NCBI RefSeq assembly: GCF_054482595.1
Contig: NZ_CM137008.1
DNA: 64,000 nucleotides
Direction: 5' to 3' (one strand)
Part shown: one piece after another, positions 4,715-14,035 of the stretch
Position numbering within the stretch: position 1 is the stretch's first letter
Layout of the letters: each line of letters starts with the position of its first letter
Notes under the pieces: generated by a model
The model's input: the letters and a program-made list of their open reading frames with translations, nothing else
Database searches by the model: none
What the model was told of the DNA's origin: nothing
Position numbers and translations under genes: made by a program

Positions 4715-5173
4715 GGGGGAAGGGGGAGATTATGGAACTTTGCTCCCTGTAAGGACTAATTATTTTTGCATATTATTTCATCGGCTGTGATGATTTTTCG
4801 TTAATATCCATTATGTTAAGAAGTTCGGGATGAGTGTGAACTCATTGGATTTTTTATCCGTCTTGATCTGCCGAAGGATCAGACTATACATTGTCGAGAT
4901 CGCAATGATGATATGAGTTGTTCCTCCTGCGACGGCTCTAATCAAAAAAGAGCAGGAGTGCTTTTCCATCTATTGCGATGATGGCTTTATTATCTGAAGG
5001 ATGACAGTCACATTTAAAAAATATTTAATCTATAGATCACAATGTAGGGTCATGGAATATATGTATACAACTATTTTCTTCTTCACTTTTAATTATCGTG
5101 TTCATTATAAAACCAAGTTAAAAAAACTCCTGGAGAGTGACTTATTAATATATTTTTAAATAAAATTAAGTTA

Positions 5174-5695
5174 TTATTCATCGATGCATTTTATAGAATC
5201 ATCAATGGCCATAATAGTACTATTAACTCTCCACTTTATATTTTTATCATCACTACAAATATTAACTGAATTTATATCAATGATTTTTTTATTCTTATCT
5301 TTTGTTTTATTTACTGTTTCAATGCAATCAGCGGCAAGTTGGAGTGGATTTAGATTTTTCAGATATGGTCTTATGATCTTTCCCTTACTTAATAAATAGC
5401 ATGTATAGGATTCGGAAAGTCCAGCATCTATTTTGTACCTCATTATATTAGATAAGGATGTGAGAAATTCCTTGTTATCATTCGCAGCCATATATGCCAG
5501 TCCGAGTTCAGCCTCTGCGGCCTTACAGGCAAAATAGCTAAGTGAACACGCTTTTCGTCCCTCTTTAGTACTGGCTGATATTAGTGCCCATAATATTGCT
5601 TTGTCTGCCAAATCTAACTCTCTCTGAAATTGTCTTGCAGTAACTGCACTCGCAGAAATAGAGAAAAAAAATACAATTGTTAATAACTTTGCCAT
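5174..5695 (-). CDS. Putative secreted immunity protein for the adjacent orphan Rhs toxin tip (yibG-like by position)
   Basis: 173-aa ORF with a signal-peptide-like N-terminus (MAKLLTIVFFFSISASAVTA); AT-rich; directly downstream of the orphan Rhs C-terminal module. Confidence 0.55.
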   Translation of the reverse strand: MAKLLTIVFFFSISASAVTARQFQRELDLADKAILWALISASTKEGRKACSLSYFACKAAEAELGLAYMAANDNKEFLTSLSNIMRYKIDAGLSESYTCYLLSKGKIIRPYLKNLNPLQLAADCIETVNKTKDKNKKIIDINSVNICSDDKNIKWRVNSTIMAIDDSIKCIDE

Positions 5696-5700
5696 ATTTT

Positions 5701-6594
5701 TTAGTCCGTAACTGTTAATGTGCTATCTGGCTCTGAAAATATTAACTCATTTAATTTTTGCATGTCATTAGATGAACCAGTTATACAACCCTCGGAACAG
5801 AATCGAGGTCCTAAAGACGGACCGAAAGCGTTTAAACAACTATGTGTTAAAAATCCATCACGATTATATGTTTCTGTATTTGCTGACGGTACTAAACGTA
5901 TACCATTAGGTTTTCTATTGGTTGCTCCAGGACCATTAACATTCCAGCTCCATACCCCTTGAGGTATTGGACCTCTATTTTGTAAGTGTGTACAACCAGG
6001 ATTATTTTTACATTGCATATTATTACCATTATTACCAGAGGCGACAGGAATAGTAAGCACATCATAAGAGTTATCATCATTTTGCGTATCTGAAACGCAT
6101 GAAAGCATACTTAAAGTTATGCTGTATAAACAGGTCGCTAATCCCAACGGGTCAATATCAGTTATCGGATTCAACGGATACTGATAAAAATTCCATCCCC
6201 CTTTCAGCCCAATCGGATCCTGAGTGATATATCGCCCCTGCAGCGGGTCATAATAGCGGTGGCGGTTGTAATACAGGCCGGACTCCTCATCATACTGCTG
6301 CCCCGGCAGGCGGATAAGCTGCTGCAGCTGATGCGGGTTCTCTTCATTCAGCAGGTTGCCCCACTCATCGTATTCTGCGCACCATTCTGTAGCACCTTCC
6401 GTGCTGATAAGCGCCAGCGGCAGGCCGCGATGGTCGCAGTGGTACAGGTGGATTTTTCGCGCCGGCGTGTACACCGGGTCCATCTGGTTTTGCATCTGCG
6501 CCACCGTCAGGCCGCACGATGCCAGCCAGCGGCGGCTTTCCTCACTCACCCGGTCAGCCAGGATTTCACTTTCCAGCCGGTCGAGCATCTGCAC
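5701..6594 (-). CDS. Orphan Rhs C-terminal module: truncated core end (through DPxGL) plus variable toxin tip, no native start (yibJ-like by position)
   Basis: ORF contains ...[39 protein letters not shown] followed by a ~145-aa AT-rich tip; homology to the main rhs core stops abruptly near 6595. Confidence 0.75.
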
Positions 6595-6595
6595 C
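6165..6595 (-). repeat. Rhs 3' core repeat, copy 3 (partial)
   Basis: About 430 bp near-identical to 10330-10760 and 8462-8890 (e.g. ccaatcggatcctgagtgatata...gcgggtcataatagcggtggcggttgtaatacaggccggactcctcatcatactgctg). Confidence 0.9.
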
Positions 6596-6635
6596 GTGCC
6601 GGCGGGAATCCCCCACTGTGCATAGGCAACTCACG

Positions 6636-7478
6636 CTATGAACGCTTCAGCTTATCAATAGCGGAAGTTATAATTTCATTGTCATCAAACTTGTACAACA
6701 TAGTATCTAAAACAGGAAGTAGCGTTTTATCACCTAATTCACCCGCAGCTTCAATGATATCATCATAAACAGTATTTTTTTTTAACTCATCGCATAAAAC
6801 AGATAAAACCCTTTTATCTTTTCTGTAGGAAAGTCAGATTATTGCTTCAATACGGACTTCCTCATTTTTATCCTGAAGCATCTCCACAAAATAATCCCTA
6901 ATATCACTATTATCATATTTATTGATATTTATTGCAAATGCGGCCCAGTTTCTGACATCTCCATTTGGATCTTTTAACAGATTAATCAATAGTGGAATTG
7001 TTGCTTTATCATTGATAACAGAAATAGCAAATGCTGTAGCACGTCTGACATTAGTCGATTTATCAAAAGCAGTAATTTGAGATTGTTCTACTATTTTAGG
7101 TGAATAATTTGGGTTTTTCTTGCATCGCTGAGCCGTTGACTCGATTGCCGTAGCTCGAACGCAAGCGCTCTTATCATTCAATGCCATATTGTTCAAAATA
7201 TTAAAAACATTATCTTCGCATTTTTTGCAAATTTTTATTTGCCCGAGTATAAATGCTCCGATATCTCTACGGATATAATTTTTATCAGAGCAGAACTCAA
7301 TTGCCAATCTAACAGCGTCTTGCCCACCTCTTAACTGTAATACTCTGGCAGATGAAATCCTTTTCAAGGAATTGTGATCATCAAGTAAGCGAAATAATTC
7401 ATCATCATTTAGTTTCTTACATTGATTATATAAACCATACTCTTTACTTGCCTTTCTTTTCTGGTATGTATTTGACAT
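6636..7478 (-). pseudogene. yibA: HEAT-repeat protein YibA, interrupted by an in-frame TGA
   Basis: Translation from the MSNTYQKRKASKEYGLYNQCKK start reads to ...EVRIEAII then TGA (6834-6836); the same frame continues LSYRKDKRVLSVLCDELKKNTVYDD...DKLKRS to a TAG at 6636-6638. Confidence 0.7.
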
Positions 7479-7582: not shown

Positions 7583-7966
7583 TTATTTTCCGTGGCCAAA
7601 ATTCAGAATTCTCCCATCATTTTTGCCTATTTCTATAATAAAAACCCCACCAGCAATTTGGTCTGAGTGAATGGTACCTTCAACAACCCAACTTGTTGTT
7701 AACTCAGTGATTTCGTATGGTTTTTCTTCTTCTGCGGCATCCTGTCCATAACGATTCTTAACATATATCTCAGCTAATTCCAATGCTATAGCTTTATTTT
7801 TAACCAAATTTCTAACGGTATATTTACCTTCACTTTCATACTTGCGCATTATTTTAATATTATTATTACACTGCGCCCATGTGTTGTATGTAAAAACAAA
7901 CAAAGATACAATGACACATTTCCTAAACAATATTTTTTTACATATTACCATGAACTCTGCAGACAT
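7583..7966 (-). CDS. Putative immunity protein for orphan Rhs tip 1 (possibly a lipoprotein or secreted)
   Basis: 127-aa ORF, AT-rich, hydrophobic N-terminus ([24 protein letters not shown]); overlaps the 3' end of the orphan toxin ORF; true start may be the internal Met at 7951. Confidence 0.5.
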
Positions 7967-9407
7967 TAGGTAATCCTTTTCCGTTTGTTATTTCCTTCCC
8001 GTGGTTATCTATTGCTTTAAAATTACCACTGGGCGTACCTAAATAAAATGACTTGATATTGTTATCTTTACTTTTAACTATTTTCTCATCTTTACCTGAA
8101 AATATTTCGTCCCAATATTCTCCATGACTATCTGCACCATGAGTATGATAAGCTGATACTTTCTCAGTACCATTAGGGCAAGGGCTATTGAATGGATATG
8201 ATCCTTTTCTTTCTCCTCGGTTAGGTGCTGTTGAGAAATATCTGCCACTATTATCCTTACATATTAAACCAGCGAACTCTTTATCTTCGCAAATAGATTG
8301 GCTATTTATTTTATTTAAGGCGTCATATGCGGTGCTATCTATAGAATCAAATTTATCTGGACCTATCATAGCGGATAGTGTGCCGCAAAGACCATTAGTA
8401 CATGCCCCCGATTTTGCATCCTCCCACATAGATAAACCCAGGGGGTCGATGTCTGATATCGGATTCAATTGATATCCATACAGGTTCCATCCCCCCTTCA
8501 GCCCAATCGGATCCTGAGTGATATACCTCCCCTGCAGCGGGTCATAATAGCGGTGGCGGTTGTAATACAGGCCGGACTCCTCATCATACTGCTGACCCGG
8601 CAGGCGGATGAGCTGCTGCAGCTGGTGCGGGTTCTCTTCATTCAGCAGGTTGCCCCATTCATCGTATTCTGCGCACCATTCTGTAGCCCCTTCCGTGCTG
8701 ATAAGCGCCAGCGGCAGGCCGCGATGGTCGCAGTGGTACAGGTGGATTTTTCGCGCCGGCGTGTACACCGGGTCCATCTGGTTTTGCATCTGCTCCACCG
8801 TCAGGCCGCACGATGCCAGCCAGCGGCGGCTTTCCTCACTCACCCGGTCAGCCAGGATTTCACTTTCCAGCCGGTCGAGCATCTGCACCAGCACCGGCGG
8901 GAACACCACACTGCCACCGTCTTCGCCGCCGGACTGCTGAAGGGCATCCGCCAGGCTGCGGCGCTGCGTTTTCGCCAGCTCACCGGTGGCAGTTTCGACC
9001 CTGATGAGTGGCGTGAAGCTCCCCGGCTGATAAATCGTCTGGATGCGGCTCCTGTCGTTCTGTATCGTGGTCAGCCGGTCGCCGTCCCAGCCGTACCAGG
9101 TCACTTGCGGTTTCCGTGACAGCGACATCCAGCCCGTCAGGTCCCGTTCACGCCGCCACACCCGTTTTGCCACCCTGCGGCCCAGCGGGTCGTAAAGATA
9201 GCGACTTTCGACCAGCGGCTCTGCATATTGTGTCCGCGTGTAGTGCACCAGCCGGTGCTGACTGTCGTAATGGTACCGGTGGGTGCGCTCATCATCCGTG
9301 CGGATAACCCCTTCCGGGATGAGGTCGGTTTTCTCCGTCAGCCTGCCGTGACGGTCATACCGGTAAAGATAGTGCGCGTCACGGGCGATACGGTTATCCG
9401 GCCACAT
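7938..9407 (-). CDS. Orphan Rhs C-terminal module 1: about 1 kb of core 3' end plus a distinct ~175-aa toxin tip, no native start
   Basis: 489-aa ORF beginning inside core sequence ([18 protein letters not shown]...), includes [27 protein letters not shown] then an AT-rich tip; core homology to the main gene ends near 9480. Confidence 0.75.
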
Positions 9408-9524: not shown

Positions 9525-9851
9525 TTATTTGTTTATAATGCGCTTACTTAATACAAACCATTGAATATACCCTCCTGACAGAAAATAAAGCCATATTATT
9601 ATCGCCATAATATACTTACTATCAATCCTTACGCCAATAATGTCTGATACAGTCCCTATAAATATTAGAGCAATAAAGAATACTATGCCTGTTGGAAAAC
9701 ATATTACCATCATTCCATAAGACATGAGACTAATTAACTCGCTCACATCACGAGTGGAGTCTAATAGTGAAAGTCTATGCATGGAAAAGAATAGTATTAA
9801 AAGCGATAAAGCCAGCCATATAGCTCTGAATAAAAAAATAATATATTTCAT
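9525..9851 (-). CDS. Putative RhsI immunity protein (small polytopic membrane protein) for the main Rhs tip
   Basis: 108-aa ORF with about three hydrophobic helices; start codon overlaps the rhs stop by 1 nt (TAATG); AT-rich. Confidence 0.6.
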   Translation of the reverse strand: MKYIIFLFRAIWLALSLLILFFSMHRLSLLDSTRDVSELISLMSYGMMVICFPTGIVFFIALIFIGTVSDIIGVRIDSKYIMAIIIWLYFLSGGYIQWFVLSKRIINK

Positions 9852-12800
9852 TACATCACTCCGGTGAATACAAATCTAATAAAACGTCCAATGTTATTTC
9901 CGGAGCACTTCATCTTACATGTTTCTAAAGAATCATTAGACCAGTCTTGGCAGTTTTTAAATAGCCCTAAATTTATAGGTGTGAATATATCAGGCAATAC
10001 AGAATAACGCGGCCTTACCTCTTTAAACTTCCCTTTTAAACAGTTCTCCACACAACTATTATCGGTTTCAACGAGGTCACAACGGCCAGCAGCTTCTTTT
10101 GTATCATTACTTGCTTTACCTGGCCCCCATAGACCATCTCCTTTTGATTCTCCCCGTTGGTCTTGGCCACCACAAGTATAGTCCCCTTTACCATCTGGGA
10201 CACAAAGATATTGATGATAGAACGGATTCCCCCATATATCTGGACCGCTTCTTTCACCAGTTCCGCCCATTGAATGCAGTGGCTTAATGCATTTTAGTGT
10301 TTCTAATCCTAATGGATCTATATTTGAGATCGGATTCAACGGATACTGATAAAAATTCCATCCCCCCTTCAGCCCAATCGGATCCTGAGTGATATACCGC
10401 CCCTGCAGCGGGTCATAATAGCGGTGGCGGTTGTAATACAGGCCGGACTCCTCATCATACTGCTGCCCCGGCAGCCGGATAAGCTGCTGCAGCTGATGCG
10501 GGTTCTCTTCATTCAGCAGGTTGCCCCATTCATCATATTCTGCGCACCACGCTGTTGCCCCTTCCGTGCTGATGAGCGCCAGCGGCAGGCCGCGATGGTC
10601 GCAGTGGTACAGGTGGATTTTTCGCGCCGGCGTGTACACCGGGTCCATCTGGTTTTGCATCTGCTCCACGGTCAGGCCGCACGATGCCAGCCAGCGGCGG
10701 CTTTCCTCACTCACCCGGTCAGCCAGGATTTCACTTTCCAGCCGGTCGAGCATCTGCACCAGCACCGGCGGGAACACCACACTGCCACCGTCTTCGCCGC
10801 CGGACTGCTGAAGCGCATCCGCCAGGCTGCGGCGCTGCGTTCTGGCCAGTTCACCGGTGGCAGTTTCAACTCTGATGAGTGGTGTGAAGCTCCCCGGCTG
10901 ATAAATCGTCTGGATGCGGCTCCTGTCGTTCTGTATCGTGGTCAGCCGGTCGCCGTCCCAGCCGTACCAGGTCACTTGCGGTTTCCGTGACAGCGACATC
11001 CAGCCCGTCAGGTCCCGTTCACGTCGCCATACCCGTTTTGCCACCCTGCGGCCCAGCGGGTCGTAAAGATAGCGACTTTCGACCAGCGGCTCTGCATATT
11101 GTGTCCGCGTGTAGTGCACCAGCCGGTGCTGACTGTCGTAATGGTACCGGTGGGTGCGCTCATCATCCGTACGGATACCCCCTTCCGGGATGAGGTCGGT
11201 TTTCTCCGTCAGCCTGCCGTAACGGTCATACCGGTAAAGATAGTGCGCGTCACGGGCGATACGGTTATCCGGCCACATGCTGAGGGTGCTGTCCGGGTGC
11301 AGCTCCGGGTCGGGCAGGCGGTTGCCCGCCGGGTCCGTGGCATACGGGATGCGGATATCCAGATTCGCTGCGGTGGTGTGAACGCCGGTCAGCCTGCCGG
11401 TGGTGCTGTAGCTGTAACTCCGGGTCTGGCGCGGGCTGCTGATGCGGATGAGTTCGCCGTTGTCGTTCCAGGTGTAATCGCGGTCATACTGCAGGCTGTT
11501 CAGGTGCTGACGCTGTAACTGCCCGGCAGGGGTGTAAGCGGTGGTGAGTTCATAACGACCGAAGCTGCGCAGCGTTTCCCGGTGCAGGCGGTCGCGGGTG
11601 AAATCCACCAGCGGTGTGTCGCCGAGCTTCATGCCTGCCAGCCAGCCGCTGCCGTAGGTCAGCCATTCCACGGCGGGCAGGCTGTCCGGTATACAGCGGT
11701 TCGCCAGTCCCTGCGCGTTGTACGCATGTCTGGTCTCATGCTGCCAGAGCAGTGCTTCCGTCTGCGGGTGATGCACCGTCTGGCGCTCACCGGTCAGGCG
11801 GCCTTTCTCATCATACCTGTAATGCACCGCTACCCGGTGCCCTTCGCTGATATGGCTGATGTCTGTCAGCCAGCCACGTTCGTCATACCGCCACCGCTCT
11901 GCGGTTTCACCCTTCACGGTGCGGTGCGTGAGGCGGTCTGCTTCGTCATAGTGCCAGTGGGTGACCAGACCCTCATCCTCGCTGCGGATAAGTTTGCCGG
12001 TCAGGTCGTGGTGATAACGCTGTGTGCGGCCGTCAAAGCCGGTTTCCTGTATCAGCCGGTCAAGTACATCGTAACGGAAGGTGGTGTGGCTGCCGTTTTC
12101 ACTGGTCAGGCGGATGACCCGTCCGGCAGCATCGTATTCCATACTGCGCGTCAGCCCGCCCTGCGTGGTACGGACGGCCTTTCCCCACGCATCGTACTGT
12201 GTCCCGTTTCTGCTGCCGTCCGGGGCAATGACGGCGGTCAGGTCACCGGCGATGTTGTATTCATACCGCGTTTCATGGCCCTGCGTGTCTTTCACGGCAA
12301 TTAACTGTCCACGGCTGTCGTATGCGCGGTACTGGCTCAGCCCTTCCTCGCGGTGCACCGCCGTCATCTGCCCGAAGCGGTCATGGTCATAACGGGTCTG
12401 GTAGCCGGAACAGTCGGTGAAGCTCAGCAACTGGCCGTAACGGCTCCACGTCATGGTTTTCCGGCTGCCGGTGGCATCGTCCGTTGCGCAGGGGAGGTCA
12501 CTGTGTGGATTATCATAACGGTAGCGGGTGATATCGCCGTCAGGGGCGGTTTCCTGAATCAGACGGCCGGATTCATCATATTCCCGGCGCAATTCCAGCC
12601 CGTCAGGCCCGGTGGCTGACGTTAACTGGTTGTGGTGGTTATAGTAAAACGCCGATGCCCTGCCATCCGGCGTGGTTATGCGCGTGATGAGGCCCGTCAC
12701 CACATCCGGGCTGTACTCTGTTGTCCTGCCTGCGGCATCCGTCTGTGCCCTGAGCCTGCCCACGGCGTCAAACTGACTCTGCGTGACGCTGCCGTCCGCG

Positions 12801-14035
12801 TGTTCCTTTTTCACCACCCGCTTCAGCCCGGCTTCGCCCTGCGTGTGCAGCACTTCACGGCGGTCCAGGCTGTCGGTGATGGTGATGCGGTCTTTCTCAT
12901 ACTGATACGTGTAGCTTAAGCCTGCCGGGTTTAGCTGTTCTGTCACCCGCCCGTCGCTGTCGTAACGGTAACGGATTTCCGGCCGGCCCGTGTGACGGTG
13001 CGCCACCATCCGGCCCCGGTATTTATCATCGTAAGTAAAGCTGCGCACCTGTGTATTGCTGCGGTCATACACTGCCGCCAGTTCGCCGCGCGGCGTCCAG
13101 CCATAGCGCACCAGCGGCGCGGCAGGTAAATTCTCCGGGTATTCCGGGTCGTGCGTCAGCCACACGGCAGACAGACGGATGCCGTTGTCCCGGCCATATT
13201 CGGTGTAACCCGGCAGGGTATCAGGAAAAGCGGACGGTTCCGTCCCGCCGGAAATGGCCTGCTGCCGGGCTTCTTCTGCCTGCTGCGCCTGCGTGGTCAG
13301 TACCAGCCGGAAGTGACGCCCGGCACCATCCGTCACGCCGGTGATTTCGCCGCTGAATTCACCGGCGGCTTCGCGGTGGAACGTCTGTGTGCGCCCGAAG
13401 CGGTCCACCAGCCCGGTCAGTACCCGGTACGGCGGCAGCGGCGCAGGCAGCACCTCATCCGCTTCCGGCACCCGCTCACACCACCACCACGGCCCCTGCG
13501 GACTGTTTGTCGCCAGATAACGATGCGGACTTAAGCGGAGTTCTTCCGGCAGCGCCTGCCAGAGTGCGGCCAGCCGGTGACCTTCATCCAGTTTCGCCAC
13601 GCCGCCGCGCACCAGCCACAGTGACTCGCTGCGGCTGTAACCGTCCTCACCGGGAAACAGGTGCTCAAAATACAGGCTTCTGCCGCCGTTATCACTGAGT
13701 ATCAGTGTGTTATCGCGCAGCTGTAAGCGGATATCCGCAGGCATTTTCCAGCCGGGGCCGAGGCTCCCCACCGGCGCGGGCGTTTTTGTCCGGTAACTGC
13801 TGTAGGTGCGGGAGAGGATGAACGGCAGCGGGGCGGGCAGGGCGATGTCGGTTTCACCGGGAAGGACCTTTGCACCGAGCAGGGGATTGACCGGATGGCC
13901 GGACGTCACTCCGCCGGGGCACCCCGAACAGGCCACACCGGTTGGGGCACCGATGCGCACCCCGGCTGAACCCTGAACAATGCTACCGCCATACTGCGTC
14001 ATGTCGCCCTGACGCGCCGCCGGTTTTCCGCTCAT
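9851..14035 (-). CDS. rhsA: Rhs-family polymorphic toxin with N-terminal PAAR-like domain, YD-repeat core and variable C-terminal tip
   Basis: 1394-aa ORF; N-terminus [42 protein letters not shown] (PAAR-like); many YD repeats; DPLGL hinge followed by a ~150-aa Cys-rich AT-rich tip; sits next to yibF as rhsA does in K-12. Confidence 0.9.
10330..11350 (-). repeat. Rhs 3' core repeat, copy 1 (within the main rhs gene)
   Basis: Source copy of the about 1-kb segment duplicated in the two orphan modules. Confidence 0.9.

Follow-up and report, generated by a model that had tools for sequence, protein, structure and literature searches.

An intact orphan Rhs cassette with a predicted peptidoglycan-directed Tlde1-type tip and an Imm57 partner in the Escherichia coli yibF–yibH array

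The window analysed here is a stretch of 64,000 nucleotides (nt) from NCBI RefSeq assembly GCF_054482595.1 (contig NZ_CM137008.1). It is a segment of an Escherichia coli chromosome whose minus strand carries an rhs array flanked by yibF and yibH/mtlA. The array ends in a cassette, its last orphan toxin/immunity unit, which consists of a 480-bp remnant of an Rhs core, an AT-rich tip of 145 amino acids (aa) and an Imm57 gene. This is very probably an orphan Rhs toxin/immunity unit in which a Tlde1-type tip, paired with Imm57, would be directed at peptidoglycan and would act in the periplasm after recombination. Shown directly are the domain identity and fold of the tip, the conservation of its catalytic residues, the orphan anatomy of its gene and the linkage of toxin and Imm57 across distant taxa. 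Usually this cassette is a fossil; the allele in the window is intact, which is rare.

The tip was compared with Pfam. Tlde1_dom (PF10908, formerly DUF2778) matched the whole open reading frame (ORF) with an E-value of 1.7e-6 (28.9 bits) and the tip alone with 3e-7 (31.3 bits), and was the sole Pfam family matched by the tip alone at E ≤ 10. The same family was matched at E ≤ 0.001 by 27 of 31 divergent relatives (best 8e-15), and YkuD was also matched by one to three of them. Precomputed PF10908 matches are also on record for relatives, and 'tlde1 domain-containing protein' is one of the names under which NCBI lists relatives, another being 'DUF2778 domain-containing protein, partial [Escherichia coli]'. 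An earlier note on this DNA, made from the letters alone, had proposed similarity to DUF2778 and YkuD, and the profile searches bear this out; the two tip strings that it quoted are both present verbatim in ORF 6594-5701. In NCBIfam neither the tip nor Imm57 is covered by a model; the lone match, to HisIE (E = 0.029), was dismissed as meaningless.

Conservation was read across the tip family. A profile built from 12 close relatives was searched against 1.84 billion representatives, giving 392 representative clusters at E ≤ 1e-3; 114 near-full-length domains (clusters at ≤50% identity) were then aligned with the window tip, 115 domains in all. His99 and Ser115 are each kept in 114 of these, and Gly117 and Cys118 in all 115. 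There is almost no variation in GPxPxG or at cysteines C3, C14, C43, C101 and C114, and C49 is present in 88. The L,D-transpeptidase-like His/Cys signature that had been read from the window alone is thus a property of the family, with His99 and Cys118 as the predicted catalytic pair. One detail has to be amended: the His had been placed about 19 residues before S-x-G-C-I (S115-E116-G117-C118-I119, 5796-5782), and 19 is indeed the distance from His99 to Cys118, but Ser115 lies 16 residues after the His.

The six non-catalytic cysteines of the tip (residues 3, 14, 43, 49, 101 and 114; window 6132-5797) are conserved in 88-115 of the 115 domains. The sequence suggests that they form the disulfide pairs C3–C14, C43–C49 and C101–C114.

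The tip has the YkuD-type L,D-transpeptidase fold. In the structural comparison Pgp2 and Csd6, both L,D-carboxypeptidases, matched best, and the lowest root-mean-square deviation (rmsd) was obtained with Tlde1a. In an AlphaFold model of a fused tip–linker–Imm57 chain both domains are confident (mean predicted local distance difference test score, pLDDT, 80; predicted template modelling score, pTM, 0.60). When a broader family profile was searched against the PDB sequences, six matches were obtained at E ≤ 10, all of them YkuD enzymes or Tlde1a. In all six alignments His99 coincides with the catalytic His of 'IHG' or 'IHD' and the S-x-G-C motif with SHGC or SKGC. The narrow profile (12 relatives) found nothing relevant among the PDB sequences. 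We place the tip in the Tlde1/DUF2778 branch of the YkuD fold, as a cysteine-rich member, and regard the fold assignment as solid. Domain identity, fold and conserved catalytic residues support the earlier suggestion that the tip targets peptidoglycan, the activity itself being a prediction. A chance occurrence of the motif was considered as well and was ruled out by the E-values together with the fold evidence.

The gene that encodes the tip is an orphan, as had been proposed. Of the 1261 positions in the NCBIfam RHS_core model only the last 151 (1111-1261) are matched, by ORF residues 2-152. The core fragment closes with the PxxxxDPxGL pattern, and the 145-aa tip follows after the DPLGL hinge. 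Nothing upstream of the core remnant belongs to the orphan gene; there is neither an Rhs shell nor an N-terminal region. From 6618 to the hinge the remnant is 94.6% identical over 481 nt to the core end of the array's main rhs gene, and it is 93.8% identical to the second orphan. Because RHS_core 1111-1261 is all that is kept and the homology to the main rhs gene extends over 481 nt, the element is a true orphan with a recombination handle. The GC content is 0.62 in the main core and 0.58 in the core remnant, and falls to 0.37 in the tip and 0.335 in the Imm57 gene; a drop from core to tip is usual in Rhs tips. In Rhs proteins this hinge is known as a cleavage site, and by analogy with other Rhs/Tc proteins autoproteolytic release of the tip is expected at DPLGL.

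In the RefSeq annotation the core remnant (6139-6606) is a pseudogene, described by the NCBI Prokaryotic Genome Annotation Pipeline (PGAP) as "missing N-terminus and C-terminus". This pseudogene stops exactly at the DPLGL hinge, and the intact 145-aa tip is therefore left without any annotation feature (5704-6138 uncalled), next to an Imm57 gene that is labelled.

The gene downstream of the tip encodes an Imm57-family protein, in which the PF15596 match spans residues 30-127. The signal-peptide-like character that had been ascribed to its N-terminus holds on inspection. In the start, MAKLLTIVFFFSISASAVTARQ, K3 makes the n-region positive, residues 15-17 form an A-S-A site, and there is a hydrophobic core, with Kyte–Doolittle means over 11 residues of 1.9-2.45 when the averaging begins at residues 1-8. 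A putative Sec signal peptide with its n-, h- and c-regions can be recognized in MAKLLTIVFFFSISASA↓V. A comparable N-terminal hydrophobic segment recurs in all of the orthologues examined, namely those of two metagenomic Rhs loci and a database homologue (26-51% identity) and that of Ralstonia. These features are consistent with export of Imm57 to the periplasm. The model of the protein is all-alpha, with seven helices, no sheet and block pLDDT values mostly of 80-97, and matches the published description of Imm57 as 'mostly alpha' (PMC3482391). The downstream gene gave no Pfam match to DUF2195, the Tldi1-type immunity family. Imm57 contains six cysteines (residues 50, 57, 99, 124, 147 and 170), several of which are common to it and its orthologues.

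Tip and Imm57 occur together well beyond this locus. The tip domain is C-terminal in 110 of the 114 near-full-length matches, and ten of those proteins are Rhs-sized (≥900 aa). Two full-length metagenomic Rhs proteins (1385 and 1570 aa; loci L004 and L005) that combine DUF6531, RHS repeats and the same tip are immediately followed by Imm57, and a Ralstonia solanacearum orphan (L015) carries the same tip with Imm57 directly downstream. The pairing of tip and Imm57 is not a local accident. A further full-length Rhs protein with the same tip is followed by a gene for a 163-aa lipoprotein-like protein (L012 7210-7701) that has no Pfam match and is not Imm57; it may represent an alternative immunity family. 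A neighbour with a BACON domain suggests that the L012 contig comes from Bacteroidetes.

The distribution of the cassette was determined in 5426 complete E. coli genomes. It is present at a coverage of ≥80% in 3488 (∼65%). The best match has 90-95% nucleotide identity in 3610 genomes and ≥95% in just 77. Window positions 5100-6200 (1101 nt) are 100% identical in strain XH990 and in at least nine other complete genomes. The state of the allele was read in eight genomes: K-12, O157:H7, M8, ETEC1748, 127, DSM 103246, XH990 and 10R. The same frameshift, at about tip residue 53, is found in five of them (K-12, O157:H7, M8, ETEC1748 and strain 127), and the Imm57 genes of these five common-allele genomes are also frameshifted. 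In DSM 103246, whose identity to the window is 99.5%, the tip is interrupted by a nonsense codon. The cassette is intact in the remaining two, XH990 (identical to the window) and 10R. Both genes of the window cassette are fully open, and every family-invariant residue is kept. Between the window and 10R there are 16 nt differences in the tip, and the ratio of nonsynonymous to synonymous substitution rates (dN/dS), based on few substitutions, is 0.21 for the tip and 0.45 for Imm57.

The copy of K-12 MG1655 (L002 8001-8957) lies at the same locus, is 94% identical and has decayed. Its tip has lost 9 bp and 1 bp in two deletions, and its Imm57 gene has lost 1 bp in a T-run and gained 1 bp in an A-run; RefSeq enters it as a fragmentary Rhs pseudogene that contains an internal stop, together with a frameshifted Imm57 gene. 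In K-12 nomenclature these decayed fragments are yibS/yibW and yibV/yibU. The core remnant of the window copy is longer and better preserved than that of K-12. Since the K-12 lesion recurs in O157:H7 and three more of the sampled strains, the decay of the tip is old and shared among them. The alleles are also mosaic: in comparison with K-12 the identity is 87% in the 5' half of the tip, 96% in its 3' half and 98.7% in Imm57, whereas in comparison with 10R it is 96% in the tip and 93% in Imm57. This pattern suggests recombination breakpoints within the cassette, near window 5860.

From these data we infer an enzymatic activity, a target compartment, a delivery route, activation by recombination and neutralization by Imm57, as follows. 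The cassette alone cannot make a deliverable effector because the Rhs shell and the N-terminal delivery region are missing. If its core remnant recombined homologously with the main rhs gene, the tip would become part of a full Rhs protein, and the main gene is likely to be both the recombination partner and the delivery scaffold. Recombinational reactivation is known for orphan Rhs cassettes of Salmonella (Koskiniemi et al. 2014, as cited in PMC12994826). Export of the resulting protein would most likely depend on a type VI secretion system (T6SS), and the tip would be released at DPLGL into the periplasm of a neighbouring cell. There it would attack peptidoglycan stem peptides and weaken the wall; the reaction would be that of an L,D-carboxypeptidase or a transpeptidase exchange, as in Tlde1a. 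Imm57, presumably exported by its own putative signal peptide, would bind and block the toxin in the periplasm of kin that bear the cassette. The six non-catalytic cysteines in the toxin and the six cysteines in Imm57 would fit an oxidizing, that is periplasmic, site of action.

Several results weigh against this account or narrow it. All five common alleles inspected, those of K-12 and O157:H7 included, are frameshifted and one near-identical allele has a nonsense codon, so that the cassette is frequently non-functional. The His of the (S/T)HGC motif (H129 of Tlde1a) is replaced by Glu116 in the tip; across the 115 domains this column holds E in 64, A in 13, N in 11, T in six, K in five, Q in five and other residues in 11. 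H129 of Tlde1a has been implicated in positioning D-Ala4 (PMC9638812). The spacing from His to Cys is 19 in the tip, 16 in YkuD enzymes and 10 in Tlde1a, and the exact bond that the tip attacks may therefore be a different one. The matches to PDB sequences have E-values of 0.13-1.1 and are individually non-significant, and the link to solved structures is therefore carried by Pfam and the fold comparison. Two full-length relatives (P0053 and P0058) are without a recognizable Imm57 neighbour, and Imm57 is thus a frequent, not a universal, partner; the gene after P0053 encodes 163 aa and has no Pfam match, and next to P0058 no small gene is called. Between 4900 and 7000 nine promoter-like sites were found and 8.0 were expected from shuffled sequence, which is no excess. 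No T6SS genes are present within the 64-kb window and the N-terminus of the main Rhs protein has no Pfam PAAR match; nor were T6SS, VgrG or PAAR genes found in the window or adjoining the full-length relatives. Delivery by a T6SS is accordingly an assumption of the account given above.

The most serious alternative is a genomic fossil, i.e. a decaying former Rhs tip that is still open by chance and has no present toxin or immunity function. We consider this possible but doubtful. It would explain why a frameshift is shared, together with broken Imm57 genes, by five genomes of the allele class found in 3610 of the 5426, why an allele as close as that of DSM 103246 has acquired a nonsense codon, and why yibA directly upstream is a pseudogene, the tip is left uncalled by PGAP and the promoter signal is not above chance. 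It is harder to reconcile with two open genes in the window that retain all family-invariant residues, with the second intact allele of 10R at a tip dN/dS of 0.21, with at least ten complete genomes carrying a cassette 100% identical to that of the window, and with the recombinational reactivation of orphan Rhs cassettes cited in PMC12994826.

Another alternative accepts the YkuD fold and changes the target. The tip would then not trim or exchange stem peptides in the manner of Tlde1a, but might attack another envelope bond, for example the Lpp–peptidoglycan link (cleaved by DpaA/LdtF), or form aberrant cross-links. We regard this as unlikely, given that Pgp2 and Csd6, which lead the structural matches, are L,D-carboxypeptidases, that Tlde1a has the lowest rmsd and that the tip alone matches no Pfam family other than Tlde1_dom at E ≤ 10. 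A bolder proposal is that the Rhs-borne, Imm57-paired, cysteine-rich clade is functionally distinct from Tlde1a: its three putative disulfides would not form until after delivery, so that activation of the toxin would depend on the DsbA of the victim, and the Glu-for-His replacement and the longer, Cys-bracketed loop could redirect it to another envelope bond (the Lpp–peptidoglycan link or another position of the stem peptide). This appears improbable; if true, the tip would be a periplasm-acting Rhs payload of new specificity and the intact allele a model beside the naturally inactivated K-12 copy. Finally, the toxin might act in the cytoplasm, the hydrophobic N-terminus of its partner being a membrane anchor or incidental. 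Rhs repeats are indeed mostly fused to cytoplasm-acting effectors (PMC12994826), but YkuD-fold enzymes and Tlde1a target periplasmic peptidoglycan (PMC9638812), the hydrophobic segment with its small-residue cleavage motif recurs in Imm57 orthologues at 26-51% identity and in Ralstonia, and toxin and immunity protein each have six conserved non-catalytic cysteines; a cytoplasmic site of action is highly improbable.

Both the literature and Pfam already contain the tip family and its links to Rhs and Imm57. Zhang et al. 2012 (PMC3482391) described Tox-LD-peptidase, with an LD-peptidase fold, conserved H, S and C, and association with RHS repeats, T6SS and Imm16/Imm57; Imm57 is listed there as its partner in beta- and gamma-proteobacteria. 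The window cassette belongs to this group, having a tip with H, S and C at an RHS C-terminus and Imm57 immediately downstream. The combination is identical, but the published entry is a catalogue entry by comparative genomics that contains no experiments and in which the yibF–yibH orphan is not specifically treated. DUF2778 at the C-terminus of some Rhs proteins was also reported by Sibinelli-Sousa et al. 2020 (preprint, 10.1101/2020.02.18.954545), in 11% of the genomes of one clade; the same preprint gives a Shigella sonnei example (WP_052983304.1, 'Tae7' clade) and the tie to Imm16/Imm57. The Rhs fusions of the 'Tae7' clade are found in Enterobacteriaceae including Escherichia and Shigella; they are full-length and encoded near PAAR genes, unlike the orphan fragment of the window. 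The earlier note had called a peptidoglycan-targeting payload unusual for an Rhs protein; atypical is a fair description, but with these two reports it is no discovery. A literature search, of incomplete coverage, found no experimental study of an Rhs-Tlde1/Imm57 pair.

Among the closest known systems is also Tlde1a/Tldi1a, with an L,D-transpeptidase-like T6SS effector (PDB entry 7UMA). For Tlde1a, a T6SS effector of Salmonella Typhimurium, biochemistry and structure are available and show activity on peptidoglycan stem peptides (PMC9638812). The tip differs from it in a His–Cys loop with conserved cysteines, C101 and C114, at either end, in having six conserved non-catalytic cysteines in all, and in its immunity partner, Imm57 in place of Tldi1 (DUF2195). 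Csd6 (Helicobacter pylori) and Pgp2 (Campylobacter jejuni) are multidomain endogenous L,D-carboxypeptidases of cell shape, not toxins, with an identity of 14-15%. The layout of a core remnant with DPxGL, an AT-rich tip and an immunity gene after a main rhs gene is that of the Salmonella rhs-orphan and of K-12 yibJ-yibG and yibS/yibW/yibV/yibU.

The value of the present case is modest. An intact allele stands against decay in every common K-12-type copy inspected, its tip is omitted by the annotation, and motif, loop, cysteines and immunity family set the clade apart from Tlde1a. The well-studied rhsA/yibF–yibH array can hold an intact tip, predicted to be peptidoglycan-directed, together with a predicted periplasmic immunity protein. 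For specialists it provides an example of an Rhs payload predicted to act in the periplasm, as a minority of Rhs toxins do; no new question is raised by it.

The coordinates of the cassette and of the other features of the array are presented in Table 1. The main rhs gene was called full-length with the NCBIfam RHS_core cut-off of 2000 bits, and its Pfam domains are DUF6531 and RHS repeats. Outside the array the genes of the window are housekeeping genes.

Table 1. Features of the cassette and of the surrounding rhs array in window coordinates
Feature	Position	Strand	Basis or remark
Toxin tip, 145 aa, Tlde1/DUF2778-type, YkuD-fold L,D-peptidase domain	5704..6138	-	Stop codon 5701-5703
His99, predicted catalytic His	5842..5844	-	His in 114/115 aligned domains
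Ser115-Glu116-Gly117-Cys118, S-x-G-C motif; Cys118, predicted nucleophile	5785..5796	-	Family alignment
Imm57-family immunity gene, 173 aa, intact	5174..5695	-	Pfam PF15596, E 1.9e-47; RefSeq 'Imm57 family immunity protein'
Imm57 signal-peptide-like N-terminus, residues 1-17 or 1-20; candidate sites ASA↓V or VTA↓R	5636..5695	-	Hydropathy
Orphan ORF, 297 aa, GTG start at 6594	5701..6594	-	ORF list
Rhs core 3' remnant	6139..6618	-	Homology to main rhs core
DPLGL hinge, Rhs core end; predicted release site	6139..6153	-	Read from sequence; end of TIGR03696 Rhs_assc_core match, ORF residues 75-152
yibA pseudogene, HEAT-repeat protein	6636..7478	-	Directly upstream of cassette orphan
yhhH, partner of RhsB-type orphan	7583..7966	-	
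First orphan, RhsB-type tip	7938..9407	-	
ybfB, partner after main rhs	9525..9851	-	PGAP
Main rhs gene, full-length, RhsC-type tip	9851..14035	-	NCBIfam RHS_core 2627 bits; PGAP: rhsC

The RhsC-type tip and ybfB occupy the chromosomal position of K-12 rhsA, and the RhsB-type orphan and yhhH come next, so that tips found at three separate K-12 loci are stacked in a single array in the window. The pseudogene yibA has an internal stop at 6834-6836; it is the partner of the RhsA tip in K-12 and is present here without its toxin. In K-12 yibJ-yibG lie between yibA and the cassette. They are absent in the window, as though recombination between Rhs core repeats had deleted them.

A sigma-70-like site is present on the minus strand at 5739-5768 (ATGACA, an 18-nt spacer and TAATAT), inside the 3' end of the tip and about 45 nt upstream of Imm57. 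It could drive expression of the immunity gene only, but sites of this kind are no commoner in the region than in shuffled sequence.

Two observations concern distant parts of the tip family. One of the matches, P0149 (2628 aa), is a repetitive surface protein with 'AGNTNYNP' in which 14 tandem partial matches cover profile positions 18-76; it was judged to be a compositional or partial-motif artefact. The distant relatives P0134, P0137 and P0154 are standalone proteins without Rhs, each with two tandem DUF2778 domains that have their own H...SxGC.
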